A stretch of DNA of 64,000 nucleotides. Origin: Spirochaetota bacterium (GTDB lineage Bacteria; Spirochaetota; Spirochaetia; Treponematales; Rectinemataceae). The DNA lies in NCBI GenBank assembly GCA_029778945.1, contig JAKPBN010000382.1:764-64763 (forward strand), given 5' to 3'. The number at the start of each line of letters is the position of its first letter. Within the stretch, counting starts at the first letter, position 1. Of this stretch, positions 1-57,219 are shown piece after piece. A program made the position numbers and the translations under genes. The notes under the pieces were generated by a model. The model saw nothing but the letters and a program-made list of their open reading frames with translations. It ran no database searches and was not told the DNA's origin.

Positions 1-852
1 GTCGCCGCTGTCCGTCGCGGTGATCGTGCCCACGGTCGCCCCCGACCCGGTGGCGCTAAGGTTAGCTTCAACGGCCGCGGCATCCAGGGTTGCGCTGCTC
101 TCGCCAAAGGCCACCGTATAGTAGCCGGTCCCACCCTTCTGCACGGCCGTCAGGCTCGTCGTCCCGCCGCTCGCCGTGAAGGGGCCGGTGATCGTGACCG
201 ACGGCGCCGTATTGTCAACGCTAAACGTCGACCCCGAGTCCTTCAGCGCCGAGGTGTTGCCCGCCACGTCCTGTACCGCTCCGGCGGCCACCCTGATCCC
301 GATGGTCCCCTCGGCGCTCGTCCCGCTCGCAGGCACCGCGATGTACCAGGTCAAGCCGTCCCCGCTGTCCGTCGCGCTGATCGTCCCCGCGCTGGCTGTC
401 GTCACTTGGGCCGTGATTTTCGAGGCCACCCCCGATGCGGTCAGGGTGGCGGCGCTTTCGCTAAAGACCACCGTGTAGTAGCCCGTCCCGCCCTTCTTCA
501 CGGCCGCCAGGCTCGTCGTCCCCCCGCTCGTCGTGAAGGGGCCTGTCACCGCCACCGTCGGCGCCGTGTTGTCCACGTTGATGGCCGAAGCCGAGTCCTT
601 CAGCGCCGAGGTGTTGCCCGCCACATCTTGCACCGCTCCGGCGGCCACCCTGATCCCCACCGTCCCCTCGGCGCTGCTCGCGCCTATGGGCACAGCTATG
701 TACCAGGTCAGGCCGTCCCCGCTGTCCGTCGCGCTGATCGTCCCTGCGCTGGCCCCCGACACCTGGGCCGTGATTTTCGAGGCCACCCCCGATGCGGTCA
801 GGGTGGCGCTGCTCTCCCCGAACGCCACCGTGTAGTAGCCCGTCCCGCCCTT
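1..852 (-). other. In-frame continuation of the Ig-like repeat coding sequence downstream of the TAG at 853-855 (possible pseudogene tail, nonsense allele, or sequencing error; gene may extend beyond the window).
   Basis: Repeat units are 357 nt and keep the reading frame. The stop codon corresponds to an AAG (Lys) codon in the paralogous repeat copies (cttcttcac vs cttctacac). Confidence 0.45.
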
Positions 853-1242
853 CTACACGGCCGTCAGGCTCGTCGTACCGCCGCTCGTCGGGAAGGGGCC
901 GGTCATCGCCACCGTCGGCGCCGTGTTGTCCACGCTGAACGTCGACGCCGAGTCCTTCTGCGCCGAGGTGTTTCCGGCTACATCCTGCACCGCGCCTGCG
1001 GCCACCCGGATCCCCACCGTCCCCTCGGCGCTGCTCGCGCCTATGGGCACGGCGATGTTCCAGGTCAGCCCCGATCCGCTCGCGCTTATCGTCCCGACTG
1101 TCGCCGTAGGCGCTATCGCGCTGATCTTCGCGGCCACGCTTACCCCAGTCAGGGCCGCGCTGCTCTCGCCGAACACGACCTTGTAGTAGCCGGTATCGCC
1201 CTTCTTCAGCGCGGTCAGGCTCGTCGACCCACCGCTCGTCGT
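1..1242. repeat. Tandem direct repeats of ~351-357 bp (units approx 178-534, 535-891, 892-1242, plus a more divergent partial unit 1-177). Coding, one Ig-like domain per unit on the minus strand.
   Basis: Near-identical unit starts (minus-strand sense of gaaggggcc...gtcaccg...) recur at 178, 535, 892 and 1243. Unit lengths are multiples of 3. The plus-strand mirror ORFs at 176-478, 533-835 and 923-1186 are near-identical to each other. Confidence 0.85.
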
Positions 1243-2955
1243 GAAGGGGCCCGTGATCGTCACCGTCGGCGGCGTGCCATCAGCGACTGCCACCTTGGTC
1301 ACCGCTGTGGGCTGGATATTGCCGATCTCGTCCTGGGTCGTCACGGAGAAGGTATAGCTTCCGTCCACCAGGACTCCAGAAGTGAAGGTGGTGAGGGGAT
1401 AGGCGGCGGTGGCGCTGCCCGTGTGGGTCCCGCCATCGGTCCAGGAGATATTGGCCTGGGCGTAGTCCGGGTCGCCCGGGTTGGTCCAGCTCAGGGTGAC
1501 AGTGCCGCCGGAATTCGGCGTGGCAGATAGGCCGGTCACAGTCGCGGGAGGATTGCTGTCCGTGGTCTTTGTCCCCGAGGCTGTCGACGACTCATTCCCG
1601 GCAGTGTCCACGCTGCGCACGCTGAAGGTATAGGAGCCATCGGTGAGGACGGGAGTCGTGTAGGTCGAGGTCGGGCTTACGACAGTCGTCGAGCCAGGAT
1701 GGCTGGAGTCCGCCCAGGACCAGGACAGCTTGGCGGAATAGTAGTCGCTGTCGCCAGGATTGGACCAGTCCAACCTGACCTTGCCGCCGGCCAGGGCCGT
1801 CAGGCTCAGCCCAGAGACGGCCGCGGGCGGCATGGTGTCGTAATTGATCGTGGCGACTCCGGCGGCCCCGATGTCGGTGATGTTGCCGTTTCCATCGGTC
1901 GCCTGGATCTTTATCGTCCTCAAGCCCTGGCCCTCAGCGGTCGCGATGGGATAGGGGATGTTTTCCTCGGCGTAAGTGATCTTGTAGCCCTTATAGCCCC
2001 CGACGGCCCCGTCATCGTAATGCTCGGCGTCGGCCTCGTCGTAGTTGACCACCTGGGACCCGCCTATCCATTCGGTCACGGTGATTGAGGCCACATTGCC
2101 GTCGATGTTGTCCGCGGCGTCGACGGAGAGATAGGCGATATTCGAGCCGGTGGCCATGCTCGAGGAGGTTGAGGAGGTATCCGAGACGAGTCGACGGACA
2201 TAGACGCTGTTGACCGCCGGGGCGATCTCATCGATCCCGGTCCCTGTCTTGAAGACCTGGGCATCAAAGCGCTCCATCGGGACTTGGTACTTGTCCTTGA
2301 TCGACGTGGGAATGAGGGTAACCTTGTAGTTGTAGTTCTGCTTGAGTCTCTGTCCGGATTTGTAGACCAGATAGTAGCCGACGTTGCCCGCCAGGGGGAC
2401 GATCTTCTCGAAATAGGTGGAGGTGACATCGGTAAAGACCGTAGCCGTCCCGCTTTTCTCGAGCACCGACACATTGCCCAGGATGACCGTATCTGGATCC
2501 ATTTCCTGGCTAAAATCCAGGGTGATCTTCTTGTTGATCAGCACCCCCGTGTCTTTCGATGGGTCTACGGTGACGGTAGGCTTGTTGTAGTAATTGGCCT
2601 GGATCACGATAGGATCGGCGGCGCTCGTGGGGCCCGCCTTGACAGTAACCTTGGTCGAGGCCGAGGTCGTGGAGGTGAACAGGACAGTGCCACTGCCGGA
2701 TACCGTCCAATTCTTGAAGGCGTAGGCCGAGAACACCGTGGTGGACAGAGGGAATTCGACCCCGATCTTCTCGTCCACCTCTCCGCTGAGGGAGGGGGAG
2801 CCACCGGGATTGTTGGGATCCGGCTGGACAGTGATCTTGACCGGCTTGGCATTCGCCTCCCCGACCGCATCCTGGACTTTTTCCTTGAGGCTATCCCCGG
2901 TGATCAGGTTGGAGCAGGCCCCAAGCAGGAGGGTGGCCATGACGAGGGAAGCCAT
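853..2955 (-). CDS. Surface lipoprotein with N-terminal FN3-like domains and C-terminal tandem Ig-like repeats (lipobox LLGAC). The ORF ends at an in-frame TAG at 853-855 while homologous in-frame repeats continue to the window start.
   Basis: ATG at 2953-2955 gives MASLVMATLLLGAC (signal peptide plus lipobox). FN3 hallmarks are present (W...NPGD.DY...SW). Repeated TAPTVT(I/M)TGPF-T-SGG-TSLTA modules recur at ~119-aa period. The start overlaps the upstream gene stop (3047-3054). Confidence 0.7.
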   Translation of the reverse strand: MASLVMATLLLGACSNLITGDSLKEKVQDAVGEANAKPVKITVQPDPNNPGGSPSLSGEVDEKIGVEFPLSTTVFSAYAFKNWTVSGSGTVLFTSTTSASTKVTVKAGPTSAADPIVIQANYYNKPTVTVDPSKDTGVLINKKITLDFSQEMDPDTVILGNVSVLEKSGTATVFTDVTSTYFEKIVPLAGNVGYYLVYKSGQRLKQNYNYKVTLIPTSIKDKYQVPMERFDAQVFKTGTGIDEIAPAVNSVYVRRLVSDTSSTSSSMATGSNIAYLSVDAADNIDGNVASITVTEWIGGSQVVNYDEADAEHYDDGAVGGYKGYKITYAEENIPYPIATAEGQGLRTIKIQATDGNGNITDIGAAGVATINYDTMPPAAVSGLSLTALAGGKVRLDWSNPGDSDYYSAKLSWSWADSSHPGSTTVVSPTSTYTTPVLTDGSYTFSVRSVDTAGNESSTASGTKTTDSNPPATVTGLSATPNSGGTVTLSWTNPGDPDYAQANISWTDGGTHTGSATAAYPLTTFTSGVLVDGSYTFSVTTQDEIGNIQPTAVTKVAVADGTPPTVTITGPFTTSGGSTSLTALKKGDTGYYKVVFGESSAALTGVSVAAKISAIAPTATVGTISASGSGLTWNIAVPIGASSAEGTVGIRVAAGAVQDVAGNTSAQKDSASTFSVDNTAPTVAMTGPFPTSGGTTSLTAV

Positions 2956-3046
2956 CGACCGGCGCCGGGCGAAGTCCCGTTTCCTGGGAGTGGAAGGGGC
3001 ATTGCCCGCCATGTCGGATACCTGTCCTCTGTTCATGGGAAACCGC

Positions 3047-6000
3047 CTACTCATTGAGTTCTTCTGCCATGAAGGATTCGAATTCCGCCTTGTCCAAGGC
3101 GCGCAGGACTACATAGTCCCCGCCGGCAAGGCCCGCAAGGCCTGATTTCTCGAGCCTCAGCTGGCCATTGATCAGGACACGCACCGTGCCGGTCGAAGGC
3201 TGGACCTCGATCTGTATCTCGTTCCGGTCGTAGATCGACTCGGGGACAACCAGGTCCTCTATGGGAAAGAGCTGGGTGTCATAGTCCGAGCGGTAGAGCT
3301 GGAGATGGGTCGCGGCGCTGCCCAGGTGGGTCGGATCGCTCGTGAGCCAGACGAGCCAGGAGCGGCCCTCGCCATAGCCCTTGTGGGTCAGGGCGCCGGA
3401 GGCCGCGAAATGGAGGCCAAAGCCAACCCAGGCCCAGCCGGTGGACTTGGCGGTAAAGGTGTAGCGCGAGGGGCCCTTGGGGAGGCCTAGAGGGAGGATC
3501 ATCTTGGCAAAGTACTCGGTCGGCTCGAGGTGGACGGCCAGGACATCCCCGAGCTTCCAGGTGCCTACGACGGGCTTGAAGCCCCTGAAGCCCTCGGCGA
3601 GGGGGAAGGACCGGGCCAGGGCCACCGGAAGGCTGGCCGGGGCGAGGGCGGGGACTATCGGCGCCGCCTCGACTGGCCGGGCTTCCTCGGAAGCCTTGGC
3701 GACTTCGGCGACAGGCGCGAGCTGGACCGCTTCGGGAGCTGCGGGCTCCACGGCCGCGACAACTATTGGCTCCGGGACGGCGACGGGCTCTGCGATAGCG
3801 GCGGGGTCTGCGACGGCGACAGGCTCTGCCGCAGCGACGGGCTCCGCTACAGCGACGGGCTCTGCGACGGCGACAGGCTCAGTGACGGCGATGGGCTCTG
3901 TGACGGCGACAGGCTCAGTGACGGCGACAGGCTCTGCGACAGCGGCGGGGTCTGCGGCGGCGACAGGCTCAGTGACGGCGACAGGCTCTGCTGAAGCCAC
4001 AGGCTCCGCTGCGGCGACGGGCTCTTCTGCGGCCACGGGCTCCACGGCCCTTGCGACCTCAGCCAACCTGGCAGCCTCGGCTTCCTCAGCGGCTTTGGCG
4101 GCCATGGCGGCGGCTTGGGTTTCGGCGGCCTTCTGCTGCTCGGCGAGGCGCTTGGCATCGGCCGTCCTCTGGGCAGCCTCAAGGGCCGCGGCCTCGGCGG
4201 CGGCTATCTCCTCGGCGCTTGGTCCGGAATTGGCCTCGGCCGCCTGGAGGGCCGCAGCTAGGTCCTTGTCCTCCGGAACAGAGGCCAGGATGGCGGGAGG
4301 AAGGCTCGGGCCAGCCTCGGCAGGCTCGGGGCCGAGGGCGAGCGCAGTAGGCTCAGGCGGCGTTGCAGGCTCGGGCGCGGCCGCAAGCTCGGCGGGCAGG
4401 CTTGCCTCCGGCGCGGCTACAGGCTCAGCCACGGGCTCGGCCACCGGAGAGGCCGCGGGCTCGGCCACAGGCACAGGCACCGGAGAGGCCGCCGGGAGGG
4501 CTTCCTCCATCGGCTTGAGGGCTAGCCGTGCCTGGGCCCTTGGATCGGCCCAGATCGTCGTGTTCATGCGGTCGGCGAAGGACCAGGCCCGGCCCTCGCT
4601 TCCCAGCATGGAAGCCAGGTAGCCAAAGTTGGCGGCAAGCTCGGGGTTCCTCTGGGAGAGGAGCTCGTAGTCCGCATCGGACTCGCTAAAGCGCTCGAGC
4701 TCGTAGGCCGAACGCGCCCGCCCCAGGAGGGCGGTGTCCCTGGTAGGGGCAAGCTTGAAGACGTAGTCGAAGTAATTGCGGGAAAGCTCAAAATCCCGCC
4801 TCAGGAAGGCGACGTTGGCCAGGTTCGTCCAGGCATCCAGGTCCCCGGCCTTCGCGGCCAGGGAAAAGTGGGTCCAGGCCTCCTTGAGCATGCCGCTGCG
4901 GCCATAGACCATGCCCAGCTGGTTCTCGATCTCCGGGCTCTGGGGCTTGCGGGGATCCAGGGCGAGGGCCCGGATCTGGGGATCTATCTCCCGGACCACA
5001 TAGCGGTCCAGGGCCGAGTCAAAGGCCTGCATGAGCATGGCCTCCGGGGGCATGTCAAAGCGAGCGACCGAGCCGGGAATGCCCACGGAGGGGTAGAGCT
5101 TCCAGGCCTCCCTGATGGGGTAGAGCTTGGCGTCTCCCTTCTTTTCGTTGTCCGTCCACTCCTTGGCTCCGATCCGCCAGGCCTTGGCAAAGCCATCCTT
5201 GATCATGGTGATCTCTAGGGGAACCCAGACCTTGCCGTCCTGCTTGATCAGGAGGCTCTGGTCATAGAACTGCTCCTTGGCTTCCTCTTGGCTAAGCTCG
5301 AGGCGGAAGGCCATGTAGATATGCCCCGGGATGGTGATAAACGCGCATTCCACGCCCAGGGACTGGAGGAGGGAGCACATGAGGATAGACAGGTCATCGC
5401 AGTCCCCGCCCCGGAAGGTCAGGGTCTGGAAGGGGTACTGGAGGAAGTCCACCGAGCTCTCGGATGAGGTCTTGTCCACATACGAGGAGGCGGGATCCAC
5501 GACATAGTTGATGCCAAAGAGGCGCTCGGCCTCAAAGAGGCCCATGCCCAGCTGGAGGTTCCTGGAGACCCCGGGGCGGAGCCTGTCCGTCACGGTGGAC
5601 GCCACGGACTTGGCGAACCAGAGGGCCGCAGGATCGGTGGGGGAGACAAAGGCCGCCGCATGGCGGTCATCGGACCAGTTCATGGAGTTCCGATGGTAGA
5701 GCTCCAGCTCCAGGGGGAGGGAGACCGAGCGGTCGGCCCCAAAGAGGCGGTACTCGACCTTGACCGTGCCTTGGAGCTTGGCCGTGGAGGTTACGGAGAG
5801 GATGTCCTCCCCAAAGAGGGCAAGGAGGGAGACTTCCTTCTTGGCCCCGGCGGCCAAAGTGTCGAGGGTGGCGCAGACCTTGGGCTGGGACATGTACTGG
5901 GAGGAGACAAAGCTGACCTTGACGTCGTGGATGGCCTTTTCCTCGCCATTGGTCAGGACTATCGTCCCAAAGGGATTGGAGTCGTAGTAGGAATAGAAGA

Positions 6001-6646
6001 CCGGAAAGACGGGCTTGATCTCCTTGGCCTTGATGCTGAGCCGGGTCGCCGTGGGCTTGGCCATGGCCGGGATCAGGCGAAGGGCCAAGCCGGCCCTGAC
6101 CCTGGAGGCCAGGGAGACCTCTGAGGTATAGGAGCCCCGGAGATCCACGATAATCGAGGGGGAAAAGCGGAAGCCCAGGGCCAGGCCCGCGCTCCAGGTG
6201 GCTAGGCCCGCCTGGCCGAGGCTGGACGAGCCCGCGATGGCCCCGCCGCCGGAAAGCTCGAGGCCCAGACTCAGGTTTTCCGTGAGGCCCAGGCCAAGGG
6301 CCAGGCCGAGCTTGGCGTCAAAGATGCTCAGGGGATAGCGGATCGTGGAGCCGCCTGAGGACAGGAGGGCCATGGAGCCGTAGTCGAGGCTTAGGAAGGG
6401 CCTGAGCCAAGGGAGGACGGTGTAGCCCACGGAGAGGGATAGGTCGTAGCCCGTGGACAGCAGGCTCGCGGAGTCCCCAAAGGGGATCGAGGCGGCCCCG
6501 GAGATGCCGAGGGAGAGGCCCTCCCCCTTCGCCGCCGGGGAAAGAGAAGCCCCCTCGGGGGCCGCGGAGGCGCCGAGGGGGATAAGGAAGATTAGGCTGG
6601 CGAGGGCCAGGAGGCCCGGCCTGGACCTCATGGCTCGAGGTCCCAC
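3047..6646 (-). CDS. Secreted 1199-aa protein: signal peptide, Gly/Ser/Leu-rich beta-barrel-like N-domain, transglutaminase-like Cys-His core (GGDCDDLSILMCSLL...PGHIYMAF), TPR repeats, long Ala/Pro/Glu/Val low-complexity EPVAV repeat tract, conserved C-terminal domain.
   Basis: ORF translation. N-terminal MGPRAMRSRPGLLALASLIFLIPLGASA signal peptide. TGase-like motif and TPR-like helices read directly. It overlaps the upstream paralog stop (6628-6646), consistent with an operon. Confidence 0.8.
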   Translation of the reverse strand: MGPRAMRSRPGLLALASLIFLIPLGASAAPEGASLSPAAKGEGLSLGISGAASIPFGDSASLLSTGYDLSLSVGYTVLPWLRPFLSLDYGSMALLSSGGSTIRYPLSIFDAKLGLALGLGLTENLSLGLELSGGGAIAGSSSLGQAGLATWSAGLALGFRFSPSIIVDLRGSYTSEVSLASRVRAGLALRLIPAMAKPTATRLSIKAKEIKPVFPVFYSYYDSNPFGTIVLTNGEEKAIHDVKVSFVSSQYMSQPKVCATLDTLAAGAKKEVSLLALFGEDILSVTSTAKLQGTVKVEYRLFGADRSVSLPLELELYHRNSMNWSDDRHAAAFVSPTDPAALWFAKSVASTVTDRLRPGVSRNLQLGMGLFEAERLFGINYVVDPASSYVDKTSSESSVDFLQYPFQTLTFRGGDCDDLSILMCSLLQSLGVECAFITIPGHIYMAFRLELSQEEAKEQFYDQSLLIKQDGKVWVPLEITMIKDGFAKAWRIGAKEWTDNEKKGDAKLYPIREAWKLYPSVGIPGSVARFDMPPEAMLMQAFDSALDRYVVREIDPQIRALALDPRKPQSPEIENQLGMVYGRSGMLKEAWTHFSLAAKAGDLDAWTNLANVAFLRRDFELSRNYFDYVFKLAPTRDTALLGRARSAYELERFSESDADYELLSQRNPELAANFGYLASMLGSEGRAWSFADRMNTTIWADPRAQARLALKPMEEALPAASPVPVPVAEPAASPVAEPVAEPVAAPEASLPAELAAAPEPATPPEPTALALGPEPAEAGPSLPPAILASVPEDKDLAAALQAAEANSGPSAEEIAAAEAAALEAAQRTADAKRLAEQQKAAETQAAAMAAKAAEEAEAARLAEVARAVEPVAAEEPVAAAEPVASAEPVAVTEPVAAADPAAVAEPVAVTEPVAVTEPIAVTEPVAVAEPVAVAEPVAAAEPVAVADPAAIAEPVAVPEPIVVAAVEPAAPEAVQLAPVAEVAKASEEARPVEAAPIVPALAPASLPVALARSFPLAEGFRGFKPVVGTWKLGDVLAVHLEPTEYFAKMILPLGLPKGPSRYTFTAKSTGWAWVGFGLHFAASGALTHKGYGEGRSWLVWLTSDPTHLGSAATHLQLYRSDYDTQLFPIEDLVVPESIYDRNEIQIEVQPSTGTVRVLINGQLRLEKSGLAGLAGGDYVVLRALDKAEFESFMAEELNE

Positions 6647-8682
6647 TCGGTGGCGCCGCCGCGGTCGGCCGCGGCGGAGGAAGCCCTGGAGGTGGAGGCG
6701 TCGACCTTTGAGGAGAGGTAGGCATAGCGGGCCGCCAGGCCCGGGTCGGCGCTCACGACCCGGCTATAGAGGCTATCGGCCTCGGCATAGGCGTCAATCT
6801 CGTACTTGGCCTTGGCCAGGCCTATCGTGGCGATCATGTTCTCCGGGTTGAGCTTGAGGGCGGCCTCAAAGAAGGTGATCGCCACCTCGTAGTCCTTCTG
6901 CAGGTAGGCCACGTTGGCCACATTGGTCAGGGCCGGGGCAAAGTCGAGCTGGGAGGCCTTCAGGAAGGCCTCCCGGGCCTTCTGGAGGAGGCCATAGCGG
7001 GCGTAGAGCACCCCGAGGCTGTTGTACTGCCTGCCCGTCCCCGCCTGGCCCATGTCGGCCAGGAGCTTCTCGGCCCTTGGCTCGAGCTCCTTGGCCACGA
7101 AGCGGCCCATGAGATTCTCGAAGGCCAGGCTAAGCGCGGCTTCCGTGGGCTTGTAGGGCTTGAACTCGAGGCCGGCCAGGCCCACGTCCTTGTGCGTCTG
7201 CCAGGCCTGGGCCAGGTCGATAAAGGTCGGAGCCCCCTGGGCCACGGCCTTCTGCCATGAGGTCGAGCCCGAGGCCCAGGCGCTCAGGAAACCCTCCCGG
7301 AGCTTGGACATCTGGAGGGGCAGCCAGACGGCGCCGTTCCGGTAGATCAGCTCATTGGGCTTGAGGAACTCGGCCCGGGCCTGGGCCTCGCCGATGGCCA
7401 GCTTGAAGGCCACCACCACATCGTCATCCAGGAGGACGAGGGCGGCCGGCACGTCGATGGAGACCAGGGTTGTCGCGAAGAGGACGCCCAGCTCGTCCGA
7501 GTCCCCGCCCTTGTAGGCCAGGGTCTGGTAGGGGTACTGGAGGTAGTCGATCTTGCTCGGATCCCGGTGGAAGCTGGCGTAGGGGGTGGAGGGATCGGGG
7601 GCGTATTTCAGGCCCAGGAGGCGCAGGGACTCAAAGAGGCCCATGCCGAACTGCAGGTTCTTGTCCAGGTCGGGCCTAAGCTTTTCCCGAATAAGGCCTA
7701 CGGCGAACTTGGAGAGGTCGAGGACCGAGGGGTCGCTCGGGGAGATAAAGGCCGCGACCAGGCTGGGGTCAGCCCAGGTCAGGGCGTTTCGGTGGAGGAT
7801 TGTCACGGGCTCGGCCCGGGTAAGCGACTGGGCGGCCCCGAGCAGCTCATAGCCTATCTTCAGGCTGCCCTGGACCTTGGTGGTCTCCGTGATGCCCAGG
7901 ATATTGTTGCCCAGGATGGCGTAGAGAGGCACCTCCGCGGACGCCCCCTTGGCCATATAGGGTATTGTCGCGCAGACGATCGACTCGGAGCTGTAATCGC
8001 CGACAAAGAAGCTCACCTTGACGTTCCTGATCTCGGCCTGCTCGGTGTTGGTTATGGTCACGCTGCCAATAGAGCGGGTGGAATAAGTCTCGTACTCGAC
8101 GGGAAAGAAGGAGTCCTTGGGCGCTCCCAGGACCTTGACCCCGGCTCCGCGCTTTCCCAGGTTGATATCCGCAAGGATGCCTAGGCCAAGAGAAGAAACC
8201 CAGGGTTCATAATACTGGAGATAATTGATATATGATGCATTTACAAGAAGGCTAAAGGATGGGGAAAGGCGATAGCCCGCGCCAAGGCTCCCCTTCCAGT
8301 AATAATCCGTGCGGCTCGAGCCGTCAAAGCTGCCCAGATAGAGGCCCCCCGAGACGGCGGCGGACAGCTTGATCCTGGGCACGGGGTAGGCATAGACCCC
8401 GAGGCCACCGCCACCGTTGAAGAACATGAGGCTTTTGCTGCTGTTGAGTATGGGCGTTACCCCGATGCCGCCTTCGACAAAGGGCGTCAGGAAATTGAAA
8501 AGGCCAAGATTTGCGGAGAATTCCGCGCCAAAGCCCGTGCTGTAGCTCGACGCGTCCCCGGGCACCAGGGCATCAACGGCCGAATGAAGGGTAAAGTCTA
8601 GAGCCCAGCCCCCGGCGCTTCCGAGCAGGAGAACCAGCGTCAGCAGGACGGCTCCAGGCCTGGAGCTTGTGCGCACCCTCAT
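6628..8682 (-). CDS. Paralog of the 3047-6646 protein: signal peptide, beta-barrel-like N-domain, transglutaminase-like fold with catalytic positions substituted (GGDSDELGVL; DDVVVAF), TPR repeats.
   Basis: ATG at 8680-8682 (MRVRTSSRPGAVLLTLVLLLGSAGG signal peptide). Domain order is shared with the downstream paralog. In the aligned motif Cys becomes Ser, His becomes Asp, and Glu becomes Gln. Confidence 0.75.
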   Translation of the reverse strand: MRVRTSSRPGAVLLTLVLLLGSAGGWALDFTLHSAVDALVPGDASSYSTGFGAEFSANLGLFNFLTPFVEGGIGVTPILNSSKSLMFFNGGGGLGVYAYPVPRIKLSAAVSGGLYLGSFDGSSRTDYYWKGSLGAGYRLSPSFSLLVNASYINYLQYYEPWVSSLGLGILADINLGKRGAGVKVLGAPKDSFFPVEYETYSTRSIGSVTITNTEQAEIRNVKVSFFVGDYSSESIVCATIPYMAKGASAEVPLYAILGNNILGITETTKVQGSLKIGYELLGAAQSLTRAEPVTILHRNALTWADPSLVAAFISPSDPSVLDLSKFAVGLIREKLRPDLDKNLQFGMGLFESLRLLGLKYAPDPSTPYASFHRDPSKIDYLQYPYQTLAYKGGDSDELGVLFATTLVSIDVPAALVLLDDDVVVAFKLAIGEAQARAEFLKPNELIYRNGAVWLPLQMSKLREGFLSAWASGSTSWQKAVAQGAPTFIDLAQAWQTHKDVGLAGLEFKPYKPTEAALSLAFENLMGRFVAKELEPRAEKLLADMGQAGTGRQYNSLGVLYARYGLLQKAREAFLKASQLDFAPALTNVANVAYLQKDYEVAITFFEAALKLNPENMIATIGLAKAKYEIDAYAEADSLYSRVVSADPGLAARYAYLSSKVDASTSRASSAAADRGGATEWDLEP

Positions 8683-8825
8683 GGCTATTCCTTCGTTCGG
8701 GAGGACCCACCGAGACCCTCGTGGATCCCGAAAAAACACTTCTCCCTCACTGACCCATACAATGCCATAAAGCACACATAGAATCGTCTTGTTTTCGGAA
8801 TTATTATGAATAAAAAGACGATGCT

Positions 8826-20096: not shown

Positions 20097-20927
20097 TTAC
20101 TTCCGGCGCTTCACGATGAAGCGGCTGGACGGCTTGTGCGGATCGCGCGTCTTATAACCCTTGGCAGGCTGACCCCAGGGCGACACGGGCTGCTTATAGC
20201 CCTTGCCGCGGCCTTCGCCACCTCCATGAGGGTGGTCGACCGGGTTCATGACCGTGCCACGGACCGTGGGGCGGATACCGAGCCAGCGCGTCCTGCCGGC
20301 CTTTCCGAGGCGCTCGTTCATGTGTTCATCGTTGCCCACAGAGCCGATCGTCGCGGAGCACTTCTTGAAGACCATGCGAAGCTCGCCCGAGGGGAGCTTG
20401 AGGACGACGTAGTCGCCCTCGCGCGCCACGATGAGGGCCGAGGCCCCCGCGGAGCGGGCGAGCTGTCCGCCCTTGCCGAGGGTGAGCTCGACGTTGTGGA
20501 CCGTGATGCCGACGGGAATGTTCTCCAGGGGGAGGGAGTTGCCCACCTCGATGGAAGCCGTGGGGCTGGCGACGACCGACTGGCCGGCGACAAGGCCCTT
20601 GGGGCTGATGATGTAGCGCTTCTCGCCGTCCGCATACTTGATGAGGGCGATGTTCGAGGAGCGGTTCGGGTCGTACTCGATCGAGGCCACCGTGCCGGGG
20701 ACGCCGATCTTGTCGCGGAGGAAGTCAATGTCCCGGTAGCGCTGCTTGTGGCCGCCGCCCTGGTGGCGGACGGAGATGCGGCCATTGGCGGCGCGTCCGC
20801 CGTGTGACTTCTTACCCTTCGTAAGGGACTTCTCGGGATTGCTCTTGTTGGTGGTGATCTCGTTGTTCACCACCTGCACGCGGTGCCGCAGCCCCGGCGT
20901 GATAGGCCTGAAAGTCTTGATACCCAT
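20097..20927 (-). CDS. rplB: 50S ribosomal protein L2.
   Basis: 276-aa translation matches L2. Confidence 0.95.
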
Positions 20928-23168: not shown

Positions 23169-24359
23169 TCAGGAAACGACTTCGATAACCTGGCCGGAAG
23201 CGACCGTGTGGCCGCCCTCACGGATGGCGAACTTGAGCCCCTTCTCCATGGCGATCGGGTAGATGAGCTCGACGTTGATCTCCGTGTTGTCCCCGGGCAT
23301 GACCATCTCGCGGCCCTCAGGGAGGGTCACGGTGCCGGTGATGTCCGTGGTGCGGAAGTAGAACTGGGGGCGATAGCCGGAGAAGAAGGGGGAGTGGCGG
23401 CCGCCCTCGGCCTGGTTCAGGACGTAGACCTGACCCTTGAACTTCGTGTGGGGGGTGATGGAGCCGGGCTTGGCGAGAACCTGGCCGCGCTCGACTTCCT
23501 TCTTGTCCACGCCGCGGAGGAGGGTACCGACGTTGTCGCCGGCCTGGCCCTCATCGAGGAGCTTGTTGAACATCTCAATGCCGGTGACGACGGTGTTCTT
23601 CGTGGGCTTGATGCCGACGATCTCGACGGTCTCGTTGAGCTTGATGATTCCGCGCTCGACACGGCCGGTGACGACCGTTCCGCGGCCGGAGATCGAGAAC
23701 ACGTCCTCGATGGGCATCAGGAAGGGCTTGTCGGTGATGCGCTCGGGATCGGGGAAGAAGGAGTCCATGGCGTCCAGGAGGTCCTGGATGCACTTGGTGG
23801 CGGTGGCATTGTCGGGCTCGGAGAGAGCCTTGAAGGCGGAACCCTTGATGATGGGGGTGGTGGCTCCGGGGAACTTGTAGAAGTTCAGGAGGTCGCGGAC
23901 CTCCTCCTCGACAAGCTCGAGAAGCTCAGGATCGTCCACGAGGTCGACCTTGTTGAGGAAGACGAGGATGGAGGGGACACCGACCTGGCGGGCAAGGAGG
24001 ACGTGCTCGCGGGTCTGGGGCATGACAGAGTCGGGGGCGGACACGACGACGATGGCGCCGTCCATCTGGGCGGCTCCGGTGATCATGTTCTTGATGTAGT
24101 CGGCGTGGCCGGGGCAGTCGATGTGGGCGTAGTGCCTCTTCTCGGACTGGTACTCGAGGTGCCGGGTGTTGATCGTGATACCGCGGGCCTTCTCTTCCGG
24201 CGCGTTGTCGATATCGTCGAACTTCATGGCCTTGTCGCCGTACTTGCGGGCGCAGTACTGGGTGATGGCAGCGGACAGGGTCGTCTTGCCATGGTCAATG
24301 TGACCGATCGTACCGACGTTCATATGGGGTTTGGTACGCTCGAACTTCTCTTTAGCCAT
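23169..24359 (-). CDS. tuf: Elongation factor Tu.
   Basis: 396-aa translation with [13 protein letters not shown] and NKVD G-motifs. SD GGAGGAG upstream. Confidence 0.97.
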
Positions 24360-24472
24360 ATGTCACTCCTCCTTGGCTTCAAGCGCCAATAGTTTCCTAC
24401 ACGGGTTTTCGGAGTATACAGAAAGGATCAAGACTGTGCAAGTGGCCTGGAAGCGGGGCTGGGGGCGCGGCT

Positions 24473-26518
24473 TTAGCGCAAGGGCTCATAGCGGAGGAAT
24501 TTAGCCTGGTAGGCCGCCCTCCCCTTCGTGGCCGACCGGAGCTCCGAGGCCAGGCCGAAAAGGAGGCGCAGGGGGGCCGCCGCCTCGAGGTATTTCTCGC
24601 CCCCCACGTCGTCGACGGACTCTATCCGCCCTCCCCGGGCCCCCAGGACGGCGACGGCCTGGCCCAGGCAGTCCTCGGGACAGCCCAGCTCCACCCGCAT
24701 CCAGGGCTCGAGGACCTGGGTCCCGGCCCTGGCCAGGGCATCCCGGGCGGCCAGGGAGGAGGCTATCTCCAGCACGAGGGCATCCTGGCGCCCTCCGGGC
24801 AGGGAAAAGCCCAGCAGCTTGGCTTCCCAATCCTCCACTGGCCAGCCTCCGGCCGGGCCGGCGGAAAGGCTCGCCTCCACCCCGCGGGTAAAGGCCTCTA
24901 TATAGGAGGCACTGGCCCGGAGGCCTGGCCCCAGGCCCAGGCGGTGGCCCCCGCCCCTAGGAAGGGGAGCCAGGGAGAGGTCGAGGCTGGCCCGAAGCCT
25001 CTCTCCGTTCATGGAGCGATCCAGGTCGCAATGACCATCCGCTGAATGAAGGAGGGTCTCCCGGTAGGAGACCTGGGGCGCCCCGGCCCGGAGCTTGATC
25101 CCCCGCTCGACCCGGAGCCTCTCCAGGGCAACCTCAAGGTGGAGCTCCCCCATGCCGGAGAGTATGAGACGGCCCGTCTCCCCGTCCTCCCGGAGCCTCA
25201 GGGAGGGATCCTCCTCGAGGAGGCTGGCCAGGGCCTCGGCCAGGGCGGCCCCCTCGGCCCGGCCGGGGCTTTCCAGGGCGAGAGAGACCACGGGCTCGTC
25301 AAAGCCCAAGGCCTCGTAGACCAGGAGGTGGCCGGGGCTGGAGAGGCTCGAGCCCGTCGAGCCGGGGTTGCCCTTGTTGGAGGCCGCCCCAAAGGAGAGG
25401 GCCGCTATGTCCCCGGCCCGGATGGACGGAAGGTCCTCCAGGGCCGAGGCCTGGATGGAGAAGATCTTCTGGACCCGCAGGGCCTGGTCCCTTCCGGCGT
25501 CTATCACCCTGTCTCCGGGCGCAAGGCTTCCCGACCAGACCCTCACCCAGGAAAGGCGGCCAAAGGAGGGATCGGCCTGGGTCTTGAAGACAAAGGCCGA
25601 GAAGGCCCCGGCCTCTTCGCAGGCGGCCCGGGCCGGGGCCCCGGTGGCGGGATCCAGGCCCTCGGGGCAGGGCCTGTCCCCGGGACTGGGCAGGTAATCC
25701 ACGATCCCGTCCAGGAGGAGGGCCACCGAGGCATCGGAGAAAGCCGAGCCGCAGAGGAGGGGAACCAGGCGGCCCGAGACCGTCGCCGCCCGCAGGCTCG
25801 CCCGCAGGGCCTCGGCCCCGACCTCCTGGCCTGCGGCGTAGAGGGCCAGGATAGCCTCGTCGGTCTCGGCCACGGCCTCGACCAGGGCCTCCCGGCCGGC
25901 CAGGGCCACAGGAAGGAAGTCCGGAGGAATGGGGAGGGCCCCGCCCCCGGAGGGCCGGGCCTGGAGCTCGACTAGGTCTAGGACGCCCTGGAAGTCCTGG
26001 CCCTCCCCCCAGGGCAGGCAGAGGGGGATGAGGCCGGGGACGAGGGCCTTGAGCTCCCCGGCGGCCTCGAGAAAGGAGGAGCCCCTCCGGTCAAGCTTGT
26101 TGATAAAGGCCAGGCGGGGCAGGTCCCTGCGGGCGGCGGCCCGGAGGACGGCCTCGGTCCGGGATTGGACCCCGGCCACGGCGCAGAGGACAATCACCGC
26201 GGAGTCCAGGACCCGGAGGCTGCGCTCCACCTCGGAGCCAAAGTCGATGTGGCCCGGGGTGTCGATAAGGTTGATCCCCCGGCCCTTCCATTCCAGGCGG
26301 ACGCAGGCGGCCTTTACCGTGATGCCCCGCTCCCGCTCCACGGGCAGGAAGTCCGTGGCGGTGGTCCCGGAGTCGACCGAGCCTGGGGCCCTGAGCCTCC
26401 CCGCCAGGAAGAGGATGCGTTCGGTGAGGCTGGTCTTGCCCGCGTCGATGTGGGCAAAGATGCCCAGGTTGCGGAGGATGCCTGAATCGCTGCCCATGAC
26501 CAGTACATTATAGTGCAT
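24473..26518 (-). CDS. Translational GTPase of the EF-G / ribosomal-protection (TetM/TetO-like) family, ~681 aa, in the position normally held by fusA.
   Basis: AHIDAGKT, DTPGH and NKLD motifs. The G2 region GSVDSGTTATDFLPVERERGITV resembles TetM-type GSVD.GTT.TD more than EF-G GEVHDGAATMDW. ATG chosen at 26516-18 (MHYNVLVMG). Confidence 0.75.
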   Translation of the reverse strand: MHYNVLVMGSDSGILRNLGIFAHIDAGKTSLTERILFLAGRLRAPGSVDSGTTATDFLPVERERGITVKAACVRLEWKGRGINLIDTPGHIDFGSEVERSLRVLDSAVIVLCAVAGVQSRTEAVLRAAARRDLPRLAFINKLDRRGSSFLEAAGELKALVPGLIPLCLPWGEGQDFQGVLDLVELQARPSGGGALPIPPDFLPVALAGREALVEAVAETDEAILALYAAGQEVGAEALRASLRAATVSGRLVPLLCGSAFSDASVALLLDGIVDYLPSPGDRPCPEGLDPATGAPARAACEEAGAFSAFVFKTQADPSFGRLSWVRVWSGSLAPGDRVIDAGRDQALRVQKIFSIQASALEDLPSIRAGDIAALSFGAASNKGNPGSTGSSLSSPGHLLVYEALGFDEPVVSLALESPGRAEGAALAEALASLLEEDPSLRLREDGETGRLILSGMGELHLEVALERLRVERGIKLRAGAPQVSYRETLLHSADGHCDLDRSMNGERLRASLDLSLAPLPRGGGHRLGLGPGLRASASYIEAFTRGVEASLSAGPAGGWPVEDWEAKLLGFSLPGGRQDALVLEIASSLAARDALARAGTQVLEPWMRVELGCPEDCLGQAVAVLGARGGRIESVDDVGGEKYLEAAAPLRLLFGLASELRSATKGRAAYQAKFLRYEPLR

Positions 26519-26583
26519 AGTCGCCCCGGCTTTGATATAGTATCGGGGTGGCGCCCGATGAGGGGCGGGCAAGGAGCGTCAAG

Positions 26584-48110: not shown

Positions 48111-48581
48111 CTACCAGCGGTAGTGGGCAAAGGCCTTGTTCGCCTCGGCCATCTTGTGCGTATCTTCCTTCTTCTTCACGGCCGAGCCGGTGTTGTTGAA
48201 GGCGTCGACAAGCTCGTCGGCGAGCTTGTCGGCCATCGCCTTGCCGGAGCGGGAGCGGGCGGCGTTGATCAGCCAGCGCATGGCTAGGGCCTCGCGCCGG
48301 GTGTCGCGGATCTCGACGGGCACCTGGTAGGTCGCGCCGCCGACGCGGCGGGACTTGACCTCAACCAGGGGCTTCGAGTTCTCGATGGCCTTGTTGAAGA
48401 CGTCCAGGGCAGGAACCCCGGCCTTCTTCTCCATGGCCTCCATCGCATCATACACAATGCGGGTGCAGATGGACTTCTTGCCCTGCCACATCAGGCGGCA
48501 CACGAACTTCGTGAGGGTGATGGAATTGTACTTCGGATCCGGGAGATGCCCCCGGTCGATTGTCTTCTTTTTGCGTCCCAT
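48111..48581 (-). CDS. rpsG: 30S ribosomal protein S7.
   Basis: 156-aa translation matches S7. Confidence 0.95.
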
Positions 48582-48593
48582 GGTTCTGCCCCC

Positions 48594-48968
48594 TTACGCC
48601 TTCGGCCGCTTGGCGCCGTACTTGGACCGGGCCTTCTTGCGGTCTTCGACGCCGAGGGTATCCTTGGCACCGCGGACGATGTGGTAGCGCACGCCGGGGA
48701 GGTCCTTTACACGGCCTCCACGGATGAGTACCACCGAGTGCTCCTGAAGGTTGTGGCCAACGCCGGGGATGTAGGCGGTGACTTCAATACCATTCGTGAG
48801 CCTTACACGAGCGACCTTCCGGAGGGCCGAATTCGGCTTCTTCGGGGTTACGGTCATAACGCGGGTGCAAACACCCCGCCGCTGAGGGCACTCTTGGAGT
48901 GCCGGGGCCTTGGTGCGCCAGGTGTTTACCTTGCGCCCGAGGCGGATTAGCTGGTTGATCGTCGGCAT
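48594..48968 (-). CDS. rpsL: 30S ribosomal protein S12.
   Basis: [13 protein letters not shown]...[10 protein letters not shown]... matches S12. Confidence 0.97.
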
Positions 48969-49084
48969 TCTATGCTCTCGACTCCCTTTGTGTGCCAGGC
49001 TTCAGCATCGCCATGGCGAATTAGTGAAAAAACCCTATGCAAACCCCCAAACCAAGCCCCTAAAGACCCAATTCAGAGACGATA

Positions 49085-49114
49085 ACCTTACAGCCCCCTG
49101 ACCGTCTTCGTCAA
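49085..49114 (-). promoter_or_regulatory. Candidate promoter for rpsL-rpsG (-35 TTGACG at 49109-14, 18-nt spacer, -10 TAAGGT at 49085-90), just after the rpoC stop.
   Basis: Hexamer inspection only. Confidence 0.3.
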
Positions 49115-49119
49115 GCTGG

Positions 49120-53484
<4,365 letters not shown>

Positions 53485-53533
53485 ATCAGTCCCCCCTCAT
53501 CGAGTCGACTTGGGCAAAATGTACCTTGTTATC

Positions 53534-53714
53534 AATCACCACGGAGATCAGGGATGGAAGACGGAGATCACGGAGACTTCGCAGGGAAAGGCGGTTCGAG
53601 AAGGAAACTACGTTCATGATTCCCTTCTTCCTTTCTCCCACTCTTGTCTTCCTCCGTGATCTCCGTGTCGACCGGCCCAAAACGGGCCGGTCCTCCGTGG
53701 CTCCGTGGTGAATC
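53534..53714 (-). promoter_or_regulatory. Structured rpoB-rpoC intercistronic spacer: CACGGAG motifs (53540, 53569; ACGGAG 53561) on the left and four CTCCGTG motifs (53652, 53661, 53693, 53701) on the right, able to form long-range duplexes.
   Basis: Motif positions read directly. The spacer is 243 nt, unusually long for rpoB-rpoC. Confidence 0.45.
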
Positions 53715-53727
53715 GTATAGATGCCTT

Positions 53728-57219
<3,492 letters not shown>

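Follow-up and report, generated by a model that had tools for sequence, protein, structure and literature searches.

A surface-lipoprotein gene at the edge of the 64-kb stretch of DNA analysed here (64,000 nucleotides; hereafter the window) is interrupted by an in-frame TAG at 853-855 on the minus strand (CTA on the plus strand). We consider a recent, genuine single-base nonsense substitution to be the best explanation, with a probability of roughly 0.7, and an error in the base itself to be less likely. The TAG is the 26th codon of the second of four tandem repeat units, which we designate U1 to U4 in the direction of translation. An earlier note on this DNA had offered three readings of the stop, namely a nonsense allele, a phase-variable truncation and an assembly or consensus error in a collapsed repeat, and of these the nonsense allele fits best. 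Its suspicion that the real protein is much longer is supported by 284 further codons in the window, by about 330 more in a related contig and by a distant ortholog that is uninterrupted.

The ORF that ends at the TAG starts with an ATG at 3054 (3054..853, minus strand) and encodes 733 amino acids from this first ATG, and the protein on record for the locus (P0001, NCBI source, on a contig of 68,814 bp) has 727 amino acids, starting at Met7 and ending at the same TAG 853-855. The called CDS (853..3054, minus) encodes a signal peptide and a conserved N-terminal module, then two FN3-like domains and U1, and it breaks off after 25 residues of U2. When the translation was inspected by eye, its N-terminus (...RRRSMASLVMATLLLGAC-SN) was that of a lipoprotein, with a positive n-region, a hydrophobic core and a lipobox containing Cys47. 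The lipobox, L44-G45-A46-C47 (2914..2925, minus), is preceded by the n-region RRR and the hydrophobic stretch MASLVMATLLL, and the segment RRR-S-MASLVMATLLL-GAC conforms to the pattern [LVI][ASTVIGM][GAS]C. In the ortholog P0002, described below, L-M-S-C aligns with the lipobox of the window protein. The two FN3-like or DUF4959-like domains, found with Pfam, lie at residues of about 412-590 (1285..1821, minus), the FN3-like matches covering about 412-570; fn3 scored 28.1 bits on the window protein against a Pfam cut-off of 25, with no single stretch passing alone, and the Pfam matches of DUF4998 and DUF4959 to this region were near threshold. No NCBIfam family matched the lipoprotein, the C-terminal module or the product of the gene downstream of it.

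The first 8 nt of the lipoprotein gene (3047-3054) are also the last 8 nt of the upstream gene, its stop included, and that gene (3047-6646, minus; 1,199 amino acids with a weak transglutaminase-like core) in turn overlaps the gene for a TPR protein (6628-8775) by 19 nt (6628-6646). Because of these overlaps of 19 and 8 nt, the minus-strand trio of the TPR gene (8775..6628), the transglutaminase-like gene (6646..3047) and the lipoprotein gene (3054..853) suggests one translationally coupled operon. The 1,199-amino acid protein also contains Pro/Ala/Glu-rich repeats of the (A/V)EPVA type, which are encoded by an 18/54-nt tandem repeat (12.4 and 4.1 copies, respectively) at 3768-3991 within its gene (minus). 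Both proteins upstream of the lipoprotein gave very weak matches to the N-terminal region of the NCBIfam family 'anti-phage protein ProA' (scores of 29 and 21 bits, where the cut-off is 1500).

Tandem Repeats Finder (TRF) reported an array with a period of 357 at 85-1276, comprising 3.4 copies with 83% matches and no indels. We set the boundaries of the units by a recurring protein motif, 'D-N/G-T-A/P-P', which upheld the earlier description of three full units of 351-357 bp and a partial one running to the window edge. All are on the minus strand: U1 (931-1281; 351 nt, 117 amino acids), the most divergent unit, lies upstream of the stop; U2 (574-930; 357 nt) carries it; U3 (217-573; 357 nt, 119 amino acids) lies downstream of it, intact and in frame; and U4 (1-216) is represented by its first 72 codons, being cut at the window edge and completed in the related contig L001. 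The units had been described as near-identical, at about 90%, which proved too high: their pairwise DNA identity is 72-87%, with 87% for U2 and U3 and 72-80% for the other pairs. Between units, dS is 0.3-0.8 and dN/dS about 0.3 for all pairs, those with U3 and U4 included. The longest exact repeats shared by units are 41-50 nt and none reaches 51 nt; around the TAG site, U2 matches U4 exactly over the 21 nt to the left and U3 over the 30 nt to the right. The units form a mosaic: over the first 100 nt U2 is 92-94% identical to U3, whereas at nt 256-306 it is 92% identical to U1, a pattern that indicates past gene conversion between units. Four plus-strand ORFs over the repeats (176-478, 406-1530, 533-835 and 923-1186) were rejected as antisense artefacts of a high-GC coding region, because the homologs, the domain matches and a GC3 of 0.89 all belong to the minus-strand frame.

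An AlphaFold2 model of U3, for which the four units were aligned with nine repeats of distant homologs, was all-beta and confident (pLDDT 94.4, pTM 0.88). The model supports an Ig-like beta-sandwich at the level of the fold, in agreement with the earlier designation of the unit as an Ig-like module, although the curated Big families were not reached: Big_12 scored 24.6 and 17.7 bits and Big_3_3 about 20 bits, in each case against a Pfam cut-off of 27. A search of PDB sequences with a profile of the units returned only low-complexity 'Pizza' designed proteins and weak matches to R28 and GspB, and the fold comparison was more informative about the unit than the PDB sequence search.

At the position of the TAG, the sister units have AAG (U1), AAG (U3) and CAG (U4), so that the AAG which the earlier note ascribed to the sister repeats is found in U1 and U3 but not in U4. 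The single-nucleotide difference that it saw holds for all three: a single transversion turns AAG into TAG, and a single C>T transition does the same to CAG. The variant base is the A at plus-strand position 855, where the sisters have T, T and G, and none of the sister units (A, A and C on the coding strand) has a T at the first position of this codon. About 2.6% of the possible single-base changes in the ORF create a stop, so either origin of the TAG, mutation or error, would be a rare event. Beyond it, the same frame can be read through another 284 codons (1..852, minus) as far as window position 1, with no stop or frameshift, and the downstream units are in frame as had been noticed before. 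GC3 is 0.89 in this part and 0.81 upstream. By itself the open frame is weak evidence at 67% GC, since the antisense frame shows no stop either, and neither do 12 of 5000 mononucleotide shuffles. The 284 codons include no Met codon and contain no signal peptide, so a product expressed independently from them would not reach the surface. We found no terminator-like hairpin after the TAG on the coding strand, which argues that the stop is not a designed gene end.

The remainder of the gene was recovered from relatives. With the 284 post-TAG residues as a protein query, we found P0009, an N-terminally partial protein of 419 amino acids encoded at 2-1261 of L001, a JGI metagenome contig of 1,601 bp (sample 3300009648). 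Nucleotides 1-268 of L001 are 96.6% identical (9 differences) to window positions 1-268 on the reverse strand, and the L001 ORF extends beyond the window edge for about 330 codons before it reaches a natural stop, completing U4 and then encoding another Ig-like domain and a Pro/Ala-rich tail with the ending ...STWREEEPGRDES. An exhaustive representative search revealed a second lineage with the C-terminal module, P0013 (L003 9-1145), which is 44% identical to residues 97-416 of P0009. The only full-length ortholog found, P0002 (881 amino acids, 35% identical; ENA contig L002 448-3093), is one uninterrupted ORF that includes both modules: its residues 26-565 are colinear with residues 37-595 of the window protein (P0001), and the post-repeat module of P0009 finds its counterpart in residues 539-782 (E 8e-10). 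Its neighbours correspond as well, the upstream one being 44% identical to the C-terminus of the 1,199-amino acid protein of the window and the downstream one 52% identical to the protein of the downstream gene of L001; in L003 the gene after P0013 is again this downstream gene, at 67% identity. The C-terminal module is thus conserved in three lineages (P0009/L001, P0013/L003 and P0002/L002). The motifs of the conserved tail are FY(Y/F)VM.DAAGN, SSFYG.STQA, NASLSRT..ARLP, VVYRPE and a terminal STW(R/K)EEE, the last four of which recur across lineages, and no curated family matched the module. The gene directly downstream in all three related contigs (L001 1351-1599, L002 3090-3350 and L003 1220-1993; 52-67% identity) encodes a small protein with a signal peptide (MKRLFALF...IPLTVTWIDGKVE.QKGSAW) and has no match in Pfam or NCBIfam.

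Because the parts on either side of the TAG both align with the single ORF of P0002, and because the neighbouring genes are conserved, the two halves belong to one ancestral gene. The TAG itself is one base from the sense codons at the homologous positions of the sister units, and the relatives found do not reach that codon. Adding up the pieces (733 + 1 + 284 + 330), we reconstruct a gene of 1,348 codons from the first ATG, or 1,342 from Met7, so that the ancestral product would have had about 1,342-1,348 amino acids as compared with the 727 on record, and the nonsense stop removes about 45% of the protein. The predicted ancestral order is the lipobox, the conserved N-terminal module, two FN3-like domains, four Ig-like units, a terminal Ig-like domain and the Pro/Ala-rich tail. 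Since P0002 lacks the four 119-amino acid units, the four-unit array is, as judged from the alignments, a lineage-specific expansion of the stalk. Protein searches with the post-TAG part and with the part beyond the window edge gave P0009 as the only close relative; a protein scan of metagenome contigs (metagenome_contigs) for relatives covering U2 gave 188 pattern matches, none of them confirmed, in a collection that probably lacks the sample of L001; and a degenerate DNA pattern across the TAG site had no match in the metagenome collection, which did not return L001 either. For the source contig itself, an exact 41-mer scan of genome contigs (genome_contigs) and a protein-guided scan with the sequence from beyond the edge gave no match.

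Over the 89 codons shared with L001, the window differs by 8 synonymous changes, at third positions, and 1 nonsynonymous change. With 73% of sites nonsynonymous, the probability of at most one nonsynonymous change among nine is about 2e-4 under neutrality, and it is about 0.07-0.12 if only the window branch has been neutral since the split from L001. Because of this 8:1 ratio, together with the dN/dS of about 0.3 between units, it is clear that the post-TAG region evolved as coding sequence. The same substitution pattern (P of about 2e-4, or 0.07-0.12 for a neutral window branch) implies that the TAG is probably younger than the 3.4% divergence from L001. The alternatives to a young TAG are a base error or a region that is still translated, and the clean downstream part, with its one nonsynonymous change in nine, would also fit a sequencing error or continued translation.

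We then consider whether TAG is read as a stop in this genome. In about 60 crude but conservative gene calls of the window, the stops were TAG in 25, TAA in 25 and TGA in 10; such usage, with only 10 TGA, is unusual for a genome of about 64% GC. The genes ending in TAG include secY, rpoC and NUDIX, NrtR and histidine-kinase genes, whose Pfam domains run to completion a few residues short of the TAG. TAG is thus an ordinary stop here, and genome-wide reassignment of TAG is excluded. As candidates for systematic recoding, we examined two pairs of same-frame ORFs separated by a TAG (27201-28016/28032-28826 and 40951-41637/41665-42642) and rejected them as separate genes with complete domains. No other in-frame TAG of this kind was found in the genes of the window, and the only tRNAs encoded in its 64 kb are tRNA-Trp and tRNA-Thr, with no CUA anticodon, suppressor tRNA or pyl genes.

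The main competitor of a genuine substitution is a sequencing or consensus error in the base, in which case the organism has CAG or AAG and makes a full-length protein of about 1,345 amino acids. We regard this as unlikely. In its favour, the downstream ORF is flawless and under strong purifying selection relative to L001, and a tandem repeat is where polishing is least reliable. No database protein was found for the window's own post-TAG part, and the missing record is compatible with a contig end in or near the array, where assemblies are weakest. However, mixing of reads across units cannot give a T, as the sisters have A, A and C. Given a divergence of 13-28% between units and the lack of a shared exact tract as long as 51 nt, we judge that short-read assemblers would resolve the array; the absence of a sister T and the shortness of the exact repeats also make an artefact of a collapsed repeat, as the earlier note had envisaged, unlikely. 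Moreover, rpoB, rpoC, secY, rpoA, tuf, fusA, rpsL and rpsG were all full length on checking and the uL2 gene matched PDB chains end to end, and conserved genes of full length across the 64-kb window imply a low per-base error rate. We infer from these considerations that the T is real in the organism's DNA, with the qualification that the consensus, apparently that of one 68.8-kb contig and possibly from a metagenome-assembled genome, may represent one allele of a mixed population. Phase variation in its usual sense, the other option raised by the earlier note, finds no foothold: positions 1-3300 contain no simple-sequence tract (homopolymers do not exceed 6 nt, and units of 2-7 nt are never repeated four or more times), and the locus thus offers no substrate for classical slipped-strand variation.

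The remaining readings would give the stop a role or a long history. Conversion from U3 or U4, or unequal crossing-over, could conjecturally remove the TAG and restore a full-length protein with the same or a smaller number of units. The units, at 351 or 357 nt, are multiples of 3 nt and would keep an unequal crossover in frame, the mosaic array indicates that conversion has occurred in the past, and P0002, without a four-unit array, indicates that stalk length varies between lineages; but there is no simple-sequence tract, an identity of 72-87% with exact tracts below 51 nt means low rates of homologous recombination, and a deletion would be irreversible and hence not true phase variation. 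Such a repeat-mediated switch is improbable in our view. Programmed or tolerated decoding of the TAG, by a suppressor tRNA, pyrrolysine or near-cognate insertion of Gln, Lys or Tyr, would produce mostly a short form and, to a lesser extent, a long one. It could draw on the intact downstream region with its purifying selection relative to L001, on the sister residues Lys and Gln, which are frequent near-cognate insertions at UAG, and on the base after the stop, which is A; an A in this position is not the strongest termination context. Nevertheless, TAG ends about 40% of the window genes, essential ones included, which is hard to square with its efficient decoding genome-wide; the tRNAs of the window are tRNA-Trp and tRNA-Thr only; and no further gene of the window has an in-frame TAG. 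Nothing we observed supports low-level near-cognate read-through at this codon, and we hold decoding of the TAG to be very improbable. If read-through or recombination between units did maintain the TAG, giving a short anchored form and a rare full-length form with the C-terminal module, the locus would act as an on/off or length switch of a spirochaete surface protein, based on a substitution and buffered by the repeats, and the purifying selection downstream (8:1 relative to L001) would mean ongoing function; the odds of this are slim. Least probable of all is a long-established, authentic stop, with a functional 727-amino acid protein and an old, decaying remnant of 3′ units. The protein on record is indeed the 727-amino acid product ending at the TAG, yet the supposed remnant is not decaying (284 open codons, GC3 of 0.89, dN/dS of about 0.3 and the 8:1 ratio), its C-terminal module is conserved in three lineages and forms one ORF with the N-terminal module in P0002, and the TAG is not followed by a terminator.

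Under the preferred reading, a recent nonsense substitution, a change of CAG or AAG to TAG would have struck codon 26 in the second of the four Ig-like stalk units of 117-119 amino acids. Translation would begin at the lipoprotein signal, with the product presumably lipidated at Cys47, and, since TAG normally elicits RF1-type termination in this genome, ribosomes would end at the TAG in U2, giving a lipoprotein of 727-733 amino acids. This shorter product, which we infer to be made and stable, would keep the lipid anchor, the N-terminal module, the two FN3-like domains and one complete stalk unit, and would end about 2.8 units short of the complete array, without the terminal Ig-like domain or the conserved tail. 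The 3′ part would then be a remnant that has not yet decayed, untranslated or rarely translated.

Among known systems, the closest parallel to the window gene is ligC of Leptospira, an Ig-like-repeat lipoprotein gene that is a pseudogene with a premature stop in strain Fiocruz L1-130 and intact in other strains (PMC13081718). Both encode a spirochaete-type surface lipoprotein in which tandem Ig-like modules precede a non-repeat C-terminal domain, and both would have a strain-specific premature stop inside an otherwise intact ORF. Lig proteins, however, have arrays of Big_2 (PF02368) domains of about 90 amino acids, whereas the window units have 117-119 amino acids and no Big_2 match at E <=0.01, and the window protein, having no detectable sequence homology to Lig proteins, is not a member of the Lig family. 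Compared with the stalk adhesins and S-layer proteins that have Ig-like domains, such as BspA of the AgI/II family, PrgB and SbsC, it would be anchored by an N-terminal lipid rather than by LPXTG, an autotransporter or a T1SS, and it has only four units and no identified ligand-binding tip domain. As in genes decoded with pyrrolysine or suppressor tRNAs, an in-frame UAG is followed by an open frame; unlike in those, TAG is a frequent genuine stop, the window has no CUA tRNA and the gene does not encode a methylamine methyltransferase. As at contingency loci, a surface-protein gene is truncated or turned off by a small mutation, but the lesion here is a base substitution and not a change in the length of a tract, and no such tract is present.

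The locus is, in short, probably an ordinary nonsense-interrupted surface-protein gene involving no new mechanism, and the nonsense allele has no bearing on open questions in genetics or translation. For annotation, the 727-amino acid protein on record is best described as the truncated form encoded by a nonsense-interrupted gene of about 1,345 codons. The comparison also defines a small, uncharacterised family of surface lipoproteins in which a variable Ig/FN3 stalk separates a conserved N-terminal module from a terminal domain and tail that are also conserved; module and tail alike were seen in only three or four metagenomic lineages, and the genes sit between the transglutaminase-like/TPR gene pair and the gene for a small secreted protein. 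A genuine allele would amount to a natural knock-out of the C-terminal module, from which a function for that module could perhaps be assigned.

Some features of the rest of the window are worth recording. The best PDB match of uL2 (20097-20927) was 8fmw_AD, with 374 bits as compared with about 348 for the next chain; 8fmw is the ribosome of Borreliella burgdorferi, which makes a high-GC spirochaete the probable source of the window. An EF-G-like gene and tuf, assigned by Pfam domains only and with no EFG_IV match, lie at 26572..23169 and are followed by apparent ribosomal-protein operons, of which uL2, S4, rpoA and secY were checked. The genes rpoB-rpoC-rpsL-rpsG lie at 57219..48111 (minus), and between the two groups are about 21.5 kb of unrelated genes on both strands (26572-48111), including those for GGDEF, histidine kinase, NrtR/NUDIX, Band 7, M50 peptidase and acyltransferase proteins. 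The usual str operon is split in this window.
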